A stretch of 64,000 nucleotides of DNA from Coriobacteriia bacterium (GTDB lineage: Bacteria > Actinomycetota > Coriobacteriia > Anaerosomatales > PALSA-660), in the NCBI GenBank assembly GCA_025361885.1, contig JANYJF010000009.1, positions 3,696-67,695 of the forward strand, written 5' to 3'. The notes under the pieces are model-generated. The model was not told the DNA's origin, did no database searches, and saw only the letters and a program-made list of their open reading frames with translations. Positions 30,492 through 54,014 of this stretch are shown here, in pieces (position 1 is the first letter of the stretch; each line of letters opens with the position of its first letter). The position numbers and the translations under genes were made by a program.

Positions 30492-32507
30492 TTAGCGGAT
30501 CAACCTCACGTGGCAGTATGAGCAGTAGGTCTCCTTGTGGCACTTGAAGCAGTCCTGCGGATTCCCTGCCTTGACCACGTCCGGATGCTGCTTGAGCCAC
30601 GGCACAGTCGGCGAGGAGCCGGCGTGATGGCAAGCGTTGCAGAACGTGGTGGCGTGGCAGTTCACACAGGTTGCGCGATCGAGCTTGGCTGGCGTCGCCT
30701 TGAAGTCGGCGGCGTGCTGGCCACCAGGCAGGGTCTTGGCGCTGAACCCTGTCGGGTGCGGCATTGCGACCTTGTGGCAGCTCTGGCAGAAGGCGTTGGT
30801 GTTCGCATCGCCATCACCATGGCAGTAGGCACAACTGTCCTTCTGCTTGTTGTAGGAAGCCCAGTGGATCGCGCCGTTCGCGTCGGTCCGGTGCGTCCAG
30901 TTAGCAGCCTTGTGCGAGTCGGGCAGCACCTTGTTCTTCTGATGGCACGTGATGCAGAAGGCCTTGTCCTGATGGCACTTCTGGAAACATCCTGCGGTAC
31001 CGGCGGCGGCGACGGACGCCCCGTGCTGCTTGACCCACGGGACCGACGCCGTGGAACCGACGTGATGGCAGTTGCTGCACAACTCCTTGAAGGTGTGGCA
31101 GTTCGCGCACAGCTTCGGATTCGCGCTTCCGGTCTTGGCGTGGAACTGCTTGAACTCGGCCGGGTGCGGCATCGCGAGCTGATGGCAACCCACGCAGAAC
31201 GGGTTCTTGGTCGCGTCACCAGGTCCGTGGCAGATCTCACACGTCTTGATGTTCTTGGCAGCGGCCGTGTGCGCCGCAGGCGTCTTGTCCTTGGCCTGGC
31301 TGTCCGCGCCGGACGGCGAGTGCAGCCAGATCGCGGCCTTGTGCGACGTCGGGAACGGCTTCAGCTTCGTGTGGCAATCGGAGCAGAACTGCGTCGTGTG
31401 GCACTGCTTGAGACAAGAATCCATTCCATTCTTGTCGACGAGCGTCGCATGACCGTTCAGCCACGGTGTCGCAGCGTCGAACTTGCCGCCCACCTGCGTG
31501 CCGTGGTGGCAGTTGTCACAGAAGTGCGTAGCGGCGTTGTCGCCGTGGCACATGACGCACTTGGCGAGCGAGGTCTTGGAGACCGCGGGGTGGGACTTCG
31601 TCTTGAAGTCCGCGCTGTGCGGCATCGGCATGCCGTGGCACGCCTCGCAGAAAGCCTTCTCGTCATGACACATGCCGCAGTATGCGACCTGCTTGAACGG
31701 CGTGATCTTGACTCCGGCCTCGCGGTCCGAGGAGGCAGCCTTCTGGGTGCCTCCGGCCGCCTTCGATGCTTCTTCGGCCGCCTTGACCTCTTCTTCGTAG
31801 AAGGTCTTGGCGAGCGCGCCATGGCCCTTCGGAAAGAAGTTGGCCACAGCGTGGTTCGACGGCTTGAGCGGGAAGTCGGGTGTGTGGCACGCGGAGCAGA
31901 TGCCAGGGGCCTGACCACCCTTCGCCAAGCTGTGACAACGGAAGCAGCCCTGCATCTTCATATAGTCGGGGTGCTTCTGCTGCGTGAGCTTGAGGGTCAG
32001 GTTCTGCTCGTTGTGGCCGACCCGGTTGTGGCAGGTCGTGCAGGTGACGTTCTTGTCCGCGTGGACCTTATGGTCGATCACGATGCCCGCTGAGGGCGTG
32101 ACCTTGCGGTTCGCGGAATGGCATTGCGTGCATTGCGAGGAGGGGAACTCCCCGCTGTTGAGCGAGAGCTCGGATTCGGCGTTGAGGGGCAACGTGAAGT
32201 TGCCGCTCACCGTCAGGTACAGCTCTCCGAGTGCCTTCGCCTTCTTGAGGATGAACGTCACCGTGTCCGCGTTGACGGGTTCGTGACATGCCATGCAGGA
32301 CACCTCGGAGTGCGAGGAGTTCTCATACGCGGCGATCGAGTCGTCCTGCACCTTGTGACACACCTGGGCACAGAACCACCGTGTCGATGTCGCCCCCAAC
32401 ATGACGATGACGAACGCGGCCAACGCCAGGACAATGACACCCGTCCAGATGACGTATCGCGGTCGGCGGACCGGGTCTTTGAACCCGGCCAGGGAGATCT
32501 TGGCCAT
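30492..32507 (-). CDS. Membrane-anchored multiheme c-type cytochrome (about 24 heme-binding motifs; NapC/NirT-like N-terminus)
   Basis: ATG 32505-32507 with AAGGAG 8 nt upstream. One N-terminal TM helix (YVIWTGVIVLALAAFVIVMLGA). I count 21 CxxCH plus 3 Cx3CH (CAQVCH, CLKQCH, CFQKCH). The C-terminal two thirds are three tandem hexaheme repeats. Confidence 0.9.
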   Translation of the reverse strand: MAKISLAGFKDPVRRPRYVIWTGVIVLALAAFVIVMLGATSTRWFCAQVCHKVQDDSIAAYENSSHSEVSCMACHEPVNADTVTFILKKAKALGELYLTVSGNFTLPLNAESELSLNSGEFPSSQCTQCHSANRKVTPSAGIVIDHKVHADKNVTCTTCHNRVGHNEQNLTLKLTQQKHPDYMKMQGCFRCHSLAKGGQAPGICSACHTPDFPLKPSNHAVANFFPKGHGALAKTFYEEEVKAAEEASKAAGGTQKAASSDREAGVKITPFKQVAYCGMCHDEKAFCEACHGMPMPHSADFKTKSHPAVSKTSLAKCVMCHGDNAATHFCDNCHHGTQVGGKFDAATPWLNGHATLVDKNGMDSCLKQCHTTQFCSDCHTKLKPFPTSHKAAIWLHSPSGADSQAKDKTPAAHTAAAKNIKTCEICHGPGDATKNPFCVGCHQLAMPHPAEFKQFHAKTGSANPKLCANCHTFKELCSNCHHVGSTASVPWVKQHGASVAAAGTAGCFQKCHQDKAFCITCHQKNKVLPDSHKAANWTHRTDANGAIHWASYNKQKDSCAYCHGDGDANTNAFCQSCHKVAMPHPTGFSAKTLPGGQHAADFKATPAKLDRATCVNCHATTFCNACHHAGSSPTVPWLKQHPDVVKAGNPQDCFKCHKETYCSYCHVRLIR

Positions 32508-32749
32508 ACACACCTCTCCTTGCTCACATCGGGGCCCTCATGCACGCGACAAGAACAGTCGAAATCCCCTCTCGACCGATCGCGTCAACGATATCGGAAC
32601 GCATCGGGTACCGCAAACGGCCCGTCCGCACTTCCGGGGTGTTTCTGGAGGGATCTCTCGCGAGTCCTCCCTGTTGCGTCATTCGACGGGCGTGGGCCGA
32701 ATCCTGCATGCCACGGCGGCCGAGGCACACACTGCGGCCAGGCAGCCGA

Positions 32750-33216: not shown

Positions 33217-34374
33217 CTATCCCGTGATGAGGGCGTCGGCCACGCTGTTGAGTTCGCCGACGGACGAGGATATCTGACGGGACGTCGCGGCGGCCTGCTG
33301 CGAGACCATCGCCACTTCGCGCATCGAGACGACCACCTGGTCGGAGGCCGAACGCTGCTGTTGGGTGGCGATCGAGATCTGCTTGGCCGCATCCGTGGTC
33401 TGCTCGACTTCGGCGACGATCCTGTCGAGGGCGTCGGCGGTGCGACGGGCCAGGTCCTTGCCCTCGCCGACCTTCTTGGCGGAGCGCTCGGTGGCCATGA
33501 CCAGCGCGGAGGTCGATGCCTGTATCTCGCGCACGACCCGTCCGATCTCCTGGGTCGAGTCCGTCACCGAGTCCGCCAGCTTGCGGATCTCCTCGGCCAC
33601 CACAGCGAAGCCCTTGCCGGCCTCGCCCGCCCGCGCGGCCTCGATGGCGGCGTTGAGCGCCAGGATCTTCGTCTGCTCGGCTATCTCGTCGATGATCGTC
33701 AGCACGCGGCCGATCTCCTGGCTGCGCTCGCCCAGGGCGAGGATCCTGTCCGATGACTGCTGGGTGGTGATGCGGATCTCCTCGATGCCGGCAGCGGTGT
33801 CGCTCACGGCGGTCATGCCTTCCTCGGCTGACGCGAGGGTGCGCTCGGCGACCCGGACCACCGACTCGGAGTTCTCCGCTATCTGCTTGGACGTCTGTGC
33901 CAGCTCCTCGAGGGTCGCCGAGGTCTCGGTCACCGCTGCGGCCTGCTCCGCGGCACCCGACACCTGCTGCTCCGTGGCCGCGAGGATGTCGGATGCCAGT
34001 CCGCGCAGCCGGGAGTTCACACTGCGCACCTGGGAGAGGAGTGAGGTGACGTTCGCGAAGACGTGGTCGAGCTCGACCTGCGACTCGTCGATGCCGCGCG
34101 TGTCTCGAACGGCGACTCCCATGGTGCCTCCGGCTGACTTCAGGACCTCGTGCAGCACCCGCTCGGCGGTCTGCCTCGCGATGAACCAGCAGCCGGCGCC
34201 CAGTCCCACGCCCGCGATGACGCACATCGCCCAGAAGACGATGGTCTGCACGGGCCCGTCGGTGGTGACGAACAGGCTGGCGAGCAGCGGGAACGCGACT
34301 CCGACCCCGACTCCCATCGCGAGCATCGTGTACAGCAGCCTCCGACCGGTGATGTCGCTGGTTCTGGAGCTCAC
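33217..34374 (-). CDS. Methyl-accepting chemotaxis protein without an extracytoplasmic sensor domain
   Basis: 385 aa. Two closely spaced TM helices, then an MCP signalling domain with the highly conserved hairpin [30 protein letters not shown]. Confidence 0.92.
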
Positions 34375-34556: not shown

Positions 34557-34781
34557 ATGCTGACAGCCAGTATCGACCAGACCAGGTGCGACAGGCAGCC
34601 CGGTTGCCCGGCAAGCCGTGTGTGCCCGCGGGGGGCCGTGGTCCCGATCGCGGCCTCGGCTCCGGGTGCGCGGCACGGGTGGACGATCGACGAGAAGCGC
34701 TGTACTGGTTGCGGCGTGTGCATCAGGGTATGTCCCATGGCAGCGATACAGGTCCGCGAGTACGTGGAGGAGACATCATGA
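34557..34781 (+). CDS. Small 4Fe-4S ferredoxin-type protein
   Basis: 74 aa. CTGCGVCIRVCP (CxxCxxCxxxCP) plus a degenerate first motif CDRQPGCPASRVCP. The stop overlaps the next start (ATGA). Confidence 0.8.
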   Translation: MLTASIDQTRCDRQPGCPASRVCPRGAVVPIAASAPGARHGWTIDEKRCTGCGVCIRVCPMAAIQVREYVEETS

Positions 34782-35110
34782 GCGATAGCAGCCCCAAGGT
34801 CGTCGTCGAGGTCTTCGACTTGGCGAGCGAGACCGCGTGCGGTTCCGGCGGTTGAGGCCCGTCGTGGTCTCCGGAGGAGATCACCTCGATAGTCCGGGCC
34901 GAGATCGAGCGGAGGTTCGGCGACCGCGTATCGGTGCAGTACCACGACACAGGCAAGCCCGAGGTACGGGCCGAGCATGAGGAGGCCGTACGGGCGATAC
35001 AGGACGCCGACTTGCTCTATCCTGTGACGGTGATCGACGGCCACGCACTGTACGATGGTGCGGTCTCCTACCCCGCCATCCTGCGGGCCGTCGAGGCGAA
35101 GTTGGCCTGA
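34778..35110 (+). CDS. Thioredoxin/glutaredoxin-fold protein with in-frame TGA (candidate selenocysteine at codon 26)
   Basis: ATG with GGAGGAG RBS and ATGA coupling to the ferredoxin. Reading through TGA 34853-34855 in the same frame gives MSDSSPKVVVEVFDLASETACGSGG-U-GPSWSPEEITSIVRAEIERRFGDRVSVQYHDTGKPEVRAEHEEAVRAIQDADLLYPVTVIDGHALYDGAVSYPAILRAVEAKLA (110 aa). That is a complete beta-alpha-beta-alpha-beta-beta-alpha fold with the TGA at the redox-loop position. The track ORF stops at 34855. Confidence 0.55.
34856..34900 (+). promoter_or_regulatory. SECIS-like stem-loop immediately 3' of the in-frame TGA
   Basis: Lower stem ggcccg (34856-61) / cgggcc (34895-900). Upper 9-bp stem gtggtctcc (34864-72) / ggagatcac (34876-84) with one G.U pair. 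Apical loop GGA lies about 20 nt from the UGA. Confidence 0.45.
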
Positions 35111-35166: not shown

Positions 35167-36333
35167 ATGGATGCCGTCAGCATCGCCCGCTGTTCAGATT
35201 ACTCCGCCGCGCAGGTCCAGCGAGCGGTTCACGATGCGCTCACGCCGCTCGGAGGCATGAGCGCATTCGTGTCCGAGGGCCAGCGCGTCTTCATCAAGCC
35301 GAACCTCCTGTCGAAGGCGGAGCCGGAGCGCGCGGTGACGACCCACCCGGAGGTACTGAGGGCCGTGATCCGCGAAGTCCGCGCGTGCAGCCCGGCGAGC
35401 GTCTCCGTCGGGGACAGCCCCGGAGGTCGTCATTCGGCCACCTCGATCCGGGGAGTGTGGGACGCCTGCGGGCTGACCGCCGTATGTGCCGAGGAGGGGG
35501 CCGACCTGGTGCTGCTCGATGACGACGTGGTCCGTGTGCCCAATCCGTCGGGAAGCGCGCTGTACGCCTACTTCAACCTGGGGCGCGCCGTCGTCGACAC
35601 CGACGTGCTCATCGACCTCCCCAAGTTCAAGACCCACGGCTTCATGATGTTCACGGGCGCCGTGAAGAACTGCTTCGGCTGCATCCCGGGACTCGAGAAG
35701 GCGCAGTTCCATCTAAAGGTGCCGGACCGCGATGATTTCGGCGAGATGCTCGTCGACCTCATGCTGGCCTGCGCGCCCAAGCTCGCGATCATGGATGCCG
35801 TCGTCGGCATGGAGGGCGAGGGGCCCGCGGGTGGCACTCCGAAGCACATCGGCGCCGTACTGGCTTCGGCCGGCTGTGTGGAGCTCGACGTGGTGGCCTC
35901 GGCCATCGCGGGATTCGACCCCATGGAGGTCTACACGAACAAGGCTGCCGTCGGTCGTGGCCTGGGGCCGAAGACCGCCGACGAGGTCGATGTGCACGGG
36001 ACGCCGTGGCGCGAGCTGGTACCGGACACGTTCGAGAGGCCGACGCGCGACCTATCGCGGGGGATGCCCCCTTGGCTGGGACGATTCGCACGCCGCGTCA
36101 TCACGTCGAAGCCCTGTCTGGAGCGGAGGAACGAGTGCACCGGCTGTGCGACCTGCAAGGTCAACTGCCCGGTGTCCGCTATCACGATGGTCGACCACAG
36201 GCCGTCGTTCGACTACGACAAGTGCATCCGCTGCTACTGCTGCCAGGAGCTGTGCCCCCCGCAGGTCATCGGGCTCAAGACACCGTGGCTGGTGCGCACA
36301 CTGGTCGCGAGCGGGCGTGGTCGCCGGGCGTAG
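35167..36333 (+). CDS. DUF362-domain protein with C-terminal 2x[4Fe-4S] ferredoxin domain
   Basis: 388 aa. N-terminal pattern (VFIKPNLL...HPEV...GDSPGG...KTHGFMMFTGAVKNCFGCIPG) matches what I recall for DUF362. C-terminus has CTGCATCKVNCP and CIRCYCCQELCP. Confidence 0.8.
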   Translation: MDAVSIARCSDYSAAQVQRAVHDALTPLGGMSAFVSEGQRVFIKPNLLSKAEPERAVTTHPEVLRAVIREVRACSPASVSVGDSPGGRHSATSIRGVWDACGLTAVCAEEGADLVLLDDDVVRVPNPSGSALYAYFNLGRAVVDTDVLIDLPKFKTHGFMMFTGAVKNCFGCIPGLEKAQFHLKVPDRDDFGEMLVDLMLACAPKLAIMDAVVGMEGEGPAGGTPKHIGAVLASAGCVELDVVASAIAGFDPMEVYTNKAAVGRGLGPKTADEVDVHGTPWRELVPDTFERPTRDLSRGMPPWLGRFARRVITSKPCLERRNECTGCATCKVNCPVSAITMVDHRPSFDYDKCIRCYCCQELCPPQVIGLKTPWLVRTLVASGRGRRA

Positions 36334-52691: not shown

Positions 52692-54014
52692 TCAGTCCTC
52701 TGAGATGCGGAAGATGTGGACCGAGTCCTCGAGGCGGTGAGCCATGTCCGCCAGGTCCTGCGCCGAAGACGAGATCTCTTGCATGCAGGCGGTCTGCTCC
52801 TCGGCGGCCGCGGCGGTCTGCTGAGCCGAGGCCGCGTTCTGCTCCACCACGGCCGCGATGTCATGCATCGCGCGGTCCACGGAGGCGGTGCGCTCGCGCT
52901 GCTCGGCCATGGCCTCGGCAATGCGCTCTGCCAGCGCCGCTGTGCGGTTGACCACATCGTTGATCTGGGAGAGCGACGCCGAACTGCGGCCCACGACCTC
53001 CGTACCCGCAGCGACCTCGCGCATGCCGATCTGCATGTACTTGACCGCCTTGCCCGTCTCCTCCTGGACCTCTTTGATGAGGTCGCCGATCTGCTCGGCA
53101 GCCTTGCCCGAGCCCTCGGCCAACTTGCGGACCTCCTCGGCCACGACAGAGAAACCGCGACCCGACTCGCCCGCGCGCGCGGCCTCGATGGCCGCGTTGA
53201 GTGACAGCAGGTTCGTCTGGTCCGCTATGGATGTGATGACGTCGACGATCTTGCCGATCTCGACCGAACGCGTCCCGAGCACTTCCACCGAGCCGGCGAG
53301 GGTCTCGATCGCCGATTGCACCTCGGCCATCTTCGCGATGGCTTCATCGGTGGCCTGCTGTCCATGTGCGGTATACCGGGCGGCCTCCTCGCTCGTGCGG
53401 GACGCCTCCTCGGCCTGCTCTGCGGCCCGGCCGACCGTCTCGACGATGGCCTCCATCGCCGACGACGTCTCCTCGACCTTGCGCGACTGCAGCTCGGCGC
53501 CGTGCGCTATCTGCTGCACCGAGGACGATATCTCCATGGTCGAGGAGTTGATCTCCTCGGATGAGGCGGAGAGCTCCGTGGCGGCCGCGGACACTGACTC
53601 CGCGGAGCGGCGCACGTTGGCGGCGATGTCTGACAGGGACGCGATCAGGCCGTTGCACTCATTTGCCAGCAGGCCGATCTCGTCGTTCGTATCGATGTTG
53701 GCGCGCACGGTCAGGTCGCCCTGCCCCGCCTCGACCATCACATCGCCCAGATCGCGCAGAGGGCGCAGGATCTTGTTCTTGAACGCCCTGTTCCACAGGA
53801 GCTGTCCCGGTATCGCCGCCAGCAGCATCGCTACGCCGCCCCAGAATGCGATGGGGAACATCTTCGCGGGTGTGAGAGCGAGGTCAACGTACGCGTAGAT
53901 GGCGGTCACGAGCAGGCCGATCGTCACGGCCGGCCCGATGGTTATCCATGTCCAAAGGGTGAAGCGATACGACAGGCCGCCCCGTATCGAGCTGTCACGG
54001 CGTTCCTCGGTCAA
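52692..54014 (-). CDS. Methyl-accepting chemotaxis protein (2 TM, HAMP, no large sensor domain)
   Basis: 440 aa. TTG start after GGAGGAGGAGGG. Two TM helices separated by a short loop, a HAMP region, and [31 protein letters not shown]. Confidence 0.92.

Follow-up and report, generated by a model that had tools for sequence, protein, structure and literature searches.

Does an in-frame TGA end a short coriobacterial gene after 25 codons, or does the ribosome read through it as selenocysteine (Sec)? The question is raised by a 64,000-nucleotide stretch of the genome of a Coriobacteriia bacterium (contig JANYJF010000009.1; this whole stretch is called the window hereafter). At position 34778 of the window a gene begins that reaches TGA at 34853–34855 after 25 codons, stays open in the same frame for 84 further codons and stops at 35108–35110. 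A preliminary description of the locus, made from the sequence alone, had reported these coordinates, which proved correct, and had proposed that the TGA encodes Sec. From the comparative analysis presented here we conclude, with high confidence, that the TGA does encode Sec and that 34778–35110 is one gene for a 110-residue selenoprotein. The evidence for the proposal includes conservation of the TGA, homologues with Cys in its place, constraint on a hairpin just 3′ of it, and sequencing reads. The coordinates of all features are collected in Table 1.

Results

Conservation of the in-frame TGA

The window has 67% GC, with GC at third codon positions (GC3) near 85–90% within genes. The selenoprotein gene starts at an ATG that shares the letters ATGA with the TGA stop of an upstream ferredoxin-like gene, and a GGAGGAG ribosome-binding motif precedes this start, both as first described. 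Relatives likewise carry AGGAG-type motifs ahead of an ATG placed 21–25 codons 5′ of the TGA.

We compared the gene with the best 80 loci from one-genome-per-species bacterial genomes (metagenome-assembled genomes labeled Coriobacteriia, Anaerosomatales, or 'Actinobacteria'), which together with the window form a close set of 81 sequences. A distant set of 33 Sec-type members comprises five from other contigs (L081, L084, L085, L087, and L088) and 28 from a scan of metagenome contigs with a DNA pattern that demanded TGA by design and fixed columns 22–24 and 31–34 as well as the GG of the hairpin loop. The homologous codon is TGA in 80/80 related loci, hence in all 81 sequences including the window; the 33 distant members have TGA as well, and TAA, TAG, or a sense codon was never seen in these sets. 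When the TGA is read through, the 28 scan members, whose GC content ranges from 0.38 to 0.68, yield intact thioredoxin-fold open reading frames (ORFs). In the 80 loci the codon is embedded in the motif C-x-[SG]-G-G-TGA-G-P-[ST]-W-[ST]-P-E-E-I-T. Along the 18 codons 5′ of the TGA, amino acids are kept while third positions vary, so the sequence upstream of the TGA behaves as coding; Cys21, for example, is present in every one of the 81 sequences with synonymous TGC/TGT variation.

The codon immediately 5′ of the UGA shows a bias of its own. In the window (34850–34852) and loci L001–L080, this Gly codon is GGT in 58 cases and GGA in 18, and never GGG despite the 67% GC, so that either U or A precedes the UGA in 76 of the 81. 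Such a bias may be a context effect on recoding.

The interruption could also mean that the gene is a pseudogene, that assembly or sequencing went wrong, or that a nonsense mutation is confined to one strain. Nothing beyond the stop codon itself speaks for such an origin, and we give it next to no probability. The same TGA occurs in 80 species-level genomes and 33 further contigs, and two near-identical strains that were assembled independently (99.8% and 98.5% identity) retain it. At 34853–34855 no variant occurs in contigs from three DNA metagenomes and one metatranscriptome; the metatranscriptome contig spans 34756–35089 with the TGA unchanged, and overlapping metatranscriptome contigs extend beyond the selenoprotein gene and into the DUF362 gene that follows it. 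Reads, which the preliminary description had proposed to inspect, and independent assemblies therefore exclude a sequencing error. Nor do the orthologues show a pattern of decay or a chance split at the site: in all 81 sequences and the 33 distant members the TGA is preceded by 20–25 codons that are conserved in frame and vary synonymously to a normal degree.

Public annotations systematically obscure this conservation. A protein database search found 352 relatives; among the 120 listed, 119 are only 64–84 residues long and match the C-terminal 58–69% of the query, being gene calls that start 3′ of the TGA. The sole 'full-length' match among those 120 has W at the site, but its DNA reads TGA. 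Those inspected of the entries P0002–P0120, named 'DUF1462 family protein' at NCBI and 'disulfide oxidoreductase YuzD' at JGI, begin at arbitrary post-TGA starts, including ATC taken as Met, and several metagenome pipelines render the TGA as W.

A constrained hairpin 3′ of the TGA

Folding of the window sequence with RNAfold predicts a two-tier hairpin with a GGA loop. Its upper helix begins 9 nucleotides 3′ of the UGA; positions 34865–34872 pair with 34876–34883, the first G of the loop lies 20 nucleotides after the U of the UGA, and the helix UGGUCUCC-GGA-GGAGAUCA is unique within the window. The preliminary description had recognized this structure as a 9-bp upper stem on a 6-bp GC-rich lower stem. 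The upper helix, of 8 rather than 9 bp, is conserved. The lower stem is not: its positions pair in 12–89% of relatives, and RNAalifold retains the upper helix only.

Within the close set, the codons that form the hairpin are nearly frozen. Across the 81 genomes Ser31 is TCT in 79/79, Pro32 is CCG in 80/81, and Glu33, Glu34, and Ile35 are encoded by GAG, GAG, and ATC. When 40 conserved degenerate codons were scored, entropy at residues 31–35 was at most 0.1 bit (range 0–0.1), as against 0.57–2.32 bits for the rest, and the flanking Gly, Pro, Ser, and Thr codons use all four synonyms.

In the distant members the same helix is maintained by compensatory changes. The top pair is C-G in 18 sequences, U-A in 11, A-U in 2, and U-G in 1, and others widen the loop to AGGAA; pair 20–36 is G-C, A-U, or G-U, and pair 21–35 is G-U, G-C, or A-U and never unpaired. 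For the 28 scan-derived sequences, only pairs outside the fixed columns are informative. Among the distant members 92.8% of helix cells are paired, compared with 33–59% when the partner columns are slid, and the observed covariation score was reached by none of 500 shuffles; in an 86-sequence set 99.1% of helix cells are paired. No sequence has an indel in the 9-nucleotide spacer between the UGA and the hairpin. Across the family the loop is GGA, GGC, or AGGAA; its second G is invariant and its first occurs in at least 90% of sequences. The encoded peptide W-S-x-E-E-I-T is kept in Sec forms and lost in all Cys forms except one (P0121), so its conservation is best explained at the RNA level. 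Judging from these alignments, the hairpin is under RNA-level selection: synonymous sites are frozen in the close members, and the distant ones show the compensatory changes that the preliminary description had singled out as informative.

A different role for this segment has to be weighed, because the loop and 3′ arm of the hairpin spell GGAGGAG. If the TGA were a true stop, this motif could serve as the ribosome-binding site of a separately initiated C-terminal protein, leaving a 25-residue peptide upstream, and annotation pipelines do call C-terminal genes of 64–84 residues. The preliminary description had held that the downstream part has neither a start nor a ribosome-binding site of its own; the second half of that statement fails on this motif, and the first half stands, as there is no canonical start at a usable distance. 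No canonical start is conserved 3′ of the motif, where codons +9 to +13 read ATC, ACN, GCN, ATH, and RTC, and gene callers pick arbitrary starts 3′ of the hairpin (for example GTG at 34934, or ATC) that vary from genome to genome. Distant Sec forms have lost the Shine-Dalgarno-like sequence, reading CAGGAAGAG or CTGGAAGAG, but retain the helix. Moreover, the 25 upstream codons contribute strand β1 and the invariant Cys, which belong to a single chain in the Cys forms and in the DUF1462 profile. We therefore consider two separate products very improbable and a single chain read through the TGA the better account.

Cysteine homologues

If the TGA encodes Sec, homologues with Cys in its place are of particular interest, and the preliminary description had suggested looking for them. 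An exhaustive HMMER search of cluster representatives returned 32 matches, 12 of them full-length. Seven of the 12 have Cys in the TGA column (P0121, P0128, P0137, P0141, P0143, P0150, and P0151), with C-x4-C or C-x3-C spacing; another four show W there, and in all four the DNA is TGA. The closest Cys form, P0121, is 51% identical, its DNA reads TGC at the column, and at its locus the gene is flanked by the same ferredoxin on the 5′ side and by DUF362 on the 3′ side. This gene (L086, 505–870) keeps 7 bp of the former hairpin around the loop CUGAA instead of xGGxx, and its sequence suggests that Sec gave way to Cys recently and that the selenocysteine insertion sequence (SECIS) is in decay.

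Spacing varies among Sec forms as well. One subgroup (L090, L094, L096, L104, L105, L108, L111, L113, and L116) reads FGSR-[FWY]-LDSC-[AST]-GG-TGA-GP, with C-x3-U spacing. In the three loci of this subgroup that were examined (L094, L111, and L116), the neighbors, as judged by eye, are a PP-loop-like SGGxDS gene and a phosphofructokinase-like gene, a context unlike the ferredoxin and thioredoxin reductase (TrxB) contexts described below.

Decoding of the UGA

The UGA might still be decoded as something other than Sec, by near-cognate read-through as Trp, by a tRNA(UCA) that inserts Cys, or because the codon has been reassigned across the lineage. Several results leave room for this or otherwise weigh against our conclusion. 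About 20 kb per genome was read around the fetched loci, and no selA, selB, selD, or tRNA-Sec gene was found in the window or in these 116 loci: tblastn with E. coli SelA, SelB, and SelD hit only EF-Tu in the window and nothing in the later loci, and ARAGORN, run on the window and 103 of the fetched loci, detected no tRNA-Sec. When each in-frame TGA of the 64-kb window was assessed by GC3, no second selenoprotein candidate emerged. The folding energy of the hairpin is ordinary for 67% GC (z = −0.16, not significant), and we discarded it as support for a SECIS. Because the hairpin is invariant in the close family, its covariation rests on about 33 distant sequences, 28 of them partly fixed by the search pattern, and the hairpin has no family match in Rfam. 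Finally, some pipelines translate the codon as W, and SelB-dependent insertion of Cys would use identical mRNA signals.

Against decoding as another amino acid, of 35 long coding-like ORFs in the window 15 end in UGA, this very gene among them; a stop so common indicates that the code is not reassigned. Homologues have Cys, not Trp, at the column, and a hairpin with a GG loop at fixed spacing is a hallmark of SelB-dependent recoding. The gene clusters of distant members also carry a recognized selenoprotein gene. In L095, L102, L110, and L114, an ORF of the form …VTPT-TGA-PYCP… (UxxC) lies in the same cluster as the family gene. The joined ORFs of L102 and L110, the two that were scanned, match NCBIfam TIGR02187 (PDO_seleno_TRX) at 264–272 bits against a cut-off of 185, and in the three that were folded (L102, L110, and L114) a GGCCA-GGU/GGC-UGGCC hairpin lies 3′ of the TGA. 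TIGR02187 is on a published list of 87 prokaryotic selenoprotein families (PMC9312934). The presence of a recognized selenoprotein gene in the same clusters indicates that organisms with distant members decode Sec. Taken with the results above, we see only a slim chance that the UGA is decoded as something other than Sec.

We propose, then, that the ribosome reads the UGA at 34853–34855 as Sec, with the hairpin at 34865–34883 and its G-G-N apical loop acting as a putative SECIS bound by SelB carrying Sec-tRNA(Sec).

Some other in-frame TGA codons were inspected. One at 52692–52694 (minus strand) has coding-like sequence on both sides, and more likely separates two adjacent same-frame genes; the part 3′ of it offers a Met of its own four codons past the TGA and resembles CheW on reading of the sequence. 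The remaining matches of the scan in the window were antisense artefacts. On the contig of one family member (L107, around 1383, minus strand), TGA replaces the first active-site Cys of a thioredoxin-like ORF (…VLVEFYSDT-TGA-SAC…); this ORF, which has a hydrophobic segment at its N-terminus, is a candidate UxxC selenoprotein that scores below the NCBIfam thioredoxin cut-offs.

A thioredoxin-fold protein of the DUF1462/YuzD lineage

The joined product, with Cys written at the TGA, matches Pfam DUF1462 over residues 18–106 (E = 4.8e-10), an alignment that spans the TGA, covers profile positions 6–93 of 93, and scores 40 bits against a gathering cut-off of 25. The family profile in turn matches 1xg8, the DUF1462 structure of S. 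aureus SA0798, with E = 1.1e-8, and there the TGA column falls on the second Cys in the CASC motif of SA0798. A confident AlphaFold model of the orthologue P0001 (predicted local distance difference test score 86.4, predicted template modeling score 0.76) has the thioredoxin order of elements, β-α-β-α-β-β-α, with the C/U pair in the loop between β1 and α1. Foldseek ranks 1xg8 as the best structural match, then ArsD, then thioredoxins. Among 29 aligned family members, the Pro of LYPVT (Pro82), the putative cis-Pro ahead of strand β3 that the preliminary description had pointed out, is the sole invariant column, and Cys21 is invariant in the full-length alignment. The June 2026 release of NCBIfam has no model fitting the protein.

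By profile and predicted structure, then, the product is a thioredoxin-fold protein of the DUF1462/YuzD lineage, and in the model Cys21 and Sec26 occupy the usual redox-pair site of that fold. The preliminary description had anticipated most of this: the thioredoxin-like pattern is borne out by the topology of the P0001 model and the Foldseek matches; the resemblance to YuzD/DUF1462 by the Pfam score, the profile match to 1xg8, and Foldseek; and the placement of the TGA at the second redox residue by its alignment with the second Cys of CASC. It had also flagged the C-x4-U spacing as unusual, and this spacing matches that of Cys13-x4-Cys18 of ArsD in the alignment.

Genomic neighbors

A ferredoxin gene lies directly upstream in 73 of the 80 related loci, overlapping the selenoprotein gene or within about 24 nucleotides of it. 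Its product has the Cys pattern C-x5-C-x5-CP plus CxxCxxCxxxCP, and an alignment of 51 sequences shows all seven Cys columns conserved. It has seven Cys instead of eight and resembles LdpA and RLI. As far as the sequence tells, one of its clusters may be of the 3Fe-4S type, or a ligand other than Cys, or one from a partner, may complete it.

The DUF362 gene, in contrast, follows the selenoprotein gene in 27/80 related loci only, and we rejected it as an obligatory partner. DUF362 shares a Pfam clan with the N-terminal domain of LarA (PMC11770544).

Among distant members the neighbors differ. In L095 and L100 a thioredoxin-disulfide reductase lies directly downstream (TIGR01292, scoring 351 and 389 bits where the cut-off is 343); upstream in L100 is the same ferredoxin domain fused to thioredoxin, together with DUF302. 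An ArsR-family gene and a thioredoxin gene lie upstream in L097 and a ferredoxin gene upstream in L098, and L110 has a pyridine nucleotide-disulfide oxidoreductase nearby.

Within the window the neighbors include a chemotaxis receptor homologue, a multihaem cytochrome, the DUF362 protein, and a penicillin-binding protein. The cytochrome gene (30492–32513, minus strand) encodes a 673-residue multihaem c-type cytochrome with 21 CxxCH motifs, is syntenic in 72/80 loci, and has a tRNA-Pro(CGG) gene on one side and, on the other, a conserved 385-residue gene (33217–34374, minus strand) that is methyl-accepting chemotaxis receptor-like by sequence only.

Table 1. Coordinates of the selenoprotein gene, its signals, and associated genes (window positions unless a locus is named).
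Feature	Position	Strand	Basis
Selenoprotein coding sequence, 110 residues, U at position 26	34778..35110	+	Translation, Pfam DUF1462, AlphaFold, Foldseek
Upstream ferredoxin-like gene, 74 residues, 7 conserved Cys	34557..34781	+	Pfam Fer4, Fer4_7, and LdpA_Fe-S-bd matches
Shine-Dalgarno-like GGAGGAG, 5 nucleotides ahead of ATG	34766..34772	+	Direct sequence reading
TGC codon of Cys21, invariant partner of Sec (C-x4-U)	34838..34840	+	Cys in 81/81
In-frame UGA, Sec residue 26	34853..34855	+	TGA in 81/81 close and 33 distant sequences
SECIS-like hairpin UGGUCUCC-GGA-GGAGAUCA, 8 bp, loop 34873–34875	34865..34883	+	Frozen codons, compensatory pairs
Pro82 codon (LYPVT)	35021..35023	+	Invariant column among 29 aligned family members
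Downstream DUF362 protein with 2x[4Fe-4S], optional neighbor outside the conserved core	35167..36333	+	Pfam DUF362 (E 2e-57) and Fer4
PDO_seleno_TRX-type genes in distant loci	L095 4169–4674; L102 around 442 (−); L110 5150–5830; L114 4231–4911		Gene calls stop at the TGA

Discussion

A possible redox carrier

The fold, together with the placement of the C/U pair and the neighboring genes, leads us to infer that the selenoprotein is a small redox carrier that would be fed by a ferredoxin or thioredoxin system. In the mechanism that we envisage, the Cys21/Sec26 pair would cycle between a selenol/thiol and a selenenylsulfide, and the protein would act as a small redox carrier or reductase. In the lineage of the window the electrons would come from the translationally coupled seven-Cys ferredoxin, and in other lineages from an adjacent thioredoxin reductase or thioredoxin.

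A more specific arrangement can be imagined, in which the selenoprotein would join the seven-Cys ferredoxin in a new two-protein redox module and its Cys/Sec pair would act directly on an incompletely ligated Fe-S cluster. By analogy with ferredoxin:thioredoxin reductase, the pair might supply the missing eighth ligand, and low-potential electrons would then reduce the selenenylsulfide without a flavoprotein. In one distant locus (L100), the upstream gene that fuses Fer4 to thioredoxin points in this direction; we offer the idea tentatively and rate its probability as low.

The main functional rival to a redox carrier is a metalloid chaperone akin to ArsD, one that would bind As(III), Sb(III), or Se/S species between Cys21 and Sec26. 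The As(III) site of ArsD is formed by Cys12, Cys13, and Cys18. Several features recall this site. ArsD structures (3ktb, 3kgk, and 3mwh), the second-best structural match, have a thioredoxin-like fold; in a pairwise alignment with Bacteroides ArsD, Cys21 and the TGA fall on the two Cys of its C-x4-C-G motif, so that C-G-S-G-G-U-G aligns residue for residue with C-P-T-G-L-C-G, sharing the spacing of two binding Cys and the Gly that follows; and one distant member (L097) stands behind an ArsR-family regulator. The protein nevertheless scores below the ArsD family cut-offs (Pfam 19.3 against 27, NCBIfam 15.4 against 90). Equivalents of Cys13 and Cys18 are present, with Sec in place of the latter, but the third Cys of the ArsD site, corresponding to its first position (Cys12), is missing in the window protein and most members. 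Neither arsA nor arsB occurs among the neighbors examined, and the recurrent neighbors are thioredoxin reductase, thioredoxin, and ferredoxin. Since family thresholds, third Cys, and ars context all fail, we regard an ArsD-like role as unlikely, and as less likely than that of a redox carrier.

Relation to known families

The closest relatives in fold are the DUF1462/YuzD proteins (PF07315, 1xg8), to which the selenoprotein is tied by a score above the Pfam cut-off, by the best structural match, and by the alignment of Sec with the second Cys of CASC. It differs from them in its pair, which is C-x4-U (C-x3-U in one subgroup) and not CxxC, with Sec second and with no other residue of the pair matching CASC, and in being coupled to a ferredoxin. 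YuzD is itself without an established function, so membership says little about mechanism.

Among catalogued selenoproteins, the thioredoxin, glutaredoxin, and PDO/AhpF-N-terminal (TIGR02187, UxxC) families are likewise small thioredoxin-fold proteins that have Sec in the active-site loop and Cys homologues. The PDO_seleno_TRX genes share clusters with distant members and have hairpins with GGU or GGC loops. Unlike these catalogued families, the protein described here belongs to another Pfam family, and in its pair Sec stands on the C-terminal side, at a spacing of four.

Bacterial SECIS elements of the E. coli fdhF type are hairpins inside the coding sequence, at a fixed short distance past the UGA, with a G in the apical loop. 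The present hairpin is similarly placed within the coding sequence, with an apical-loop G about 21–22 nucleotides from the U of the UGA. It differs in having a perfect stem of 7–8 bp and a loop of 3 or 5 nucleotides, with no bulged U seen, and in a sequence that hardly changes between widely differing genomes; SelB is its putative binding partner.

The list of 87 prokaryotic selenoprotein families in a 2022 review has no DUF1462 or ArsD-family entry (PMC9312934), and the BSepDB and deep-Sep papers mention neither DUF1462, YuzD, nor ArsD. In the literature searched, the one paper naming DUF1462 has nothing to do with selenium, and the paper describing Anaerosomatales does not mention selenocysteine. 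No description of the family was found in the literature searched; a prior one by Haft (new selenoprotein families) is possible. On the evidence of sequence comparison, this is a new family within the thioredoxin-fold selenoproteins, with unusual C-x4-U spacing and an unusually invariant putative SECIS.

Several hundred database records of Coriobacteriia and other anaerobes, under the names 'DUF1462 family protein' or 'disulfide oxidoreductase YuzD', appear to be C-terminal fragments without the active site. The hairpin, near-identical across genomes of 38–68% GC, offers a compact test case for putative SelB recognition and a search pattern for further members. Sec would mark the catalytic redox residue and thereby give a first functional handle on DUF1462, and the neighboring genes link the family to ferredoxin and thioredoxin systems. 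If the Sec reading is true, the subsurface order Anaerosomatales (OPB41) would be selenium-dependent.

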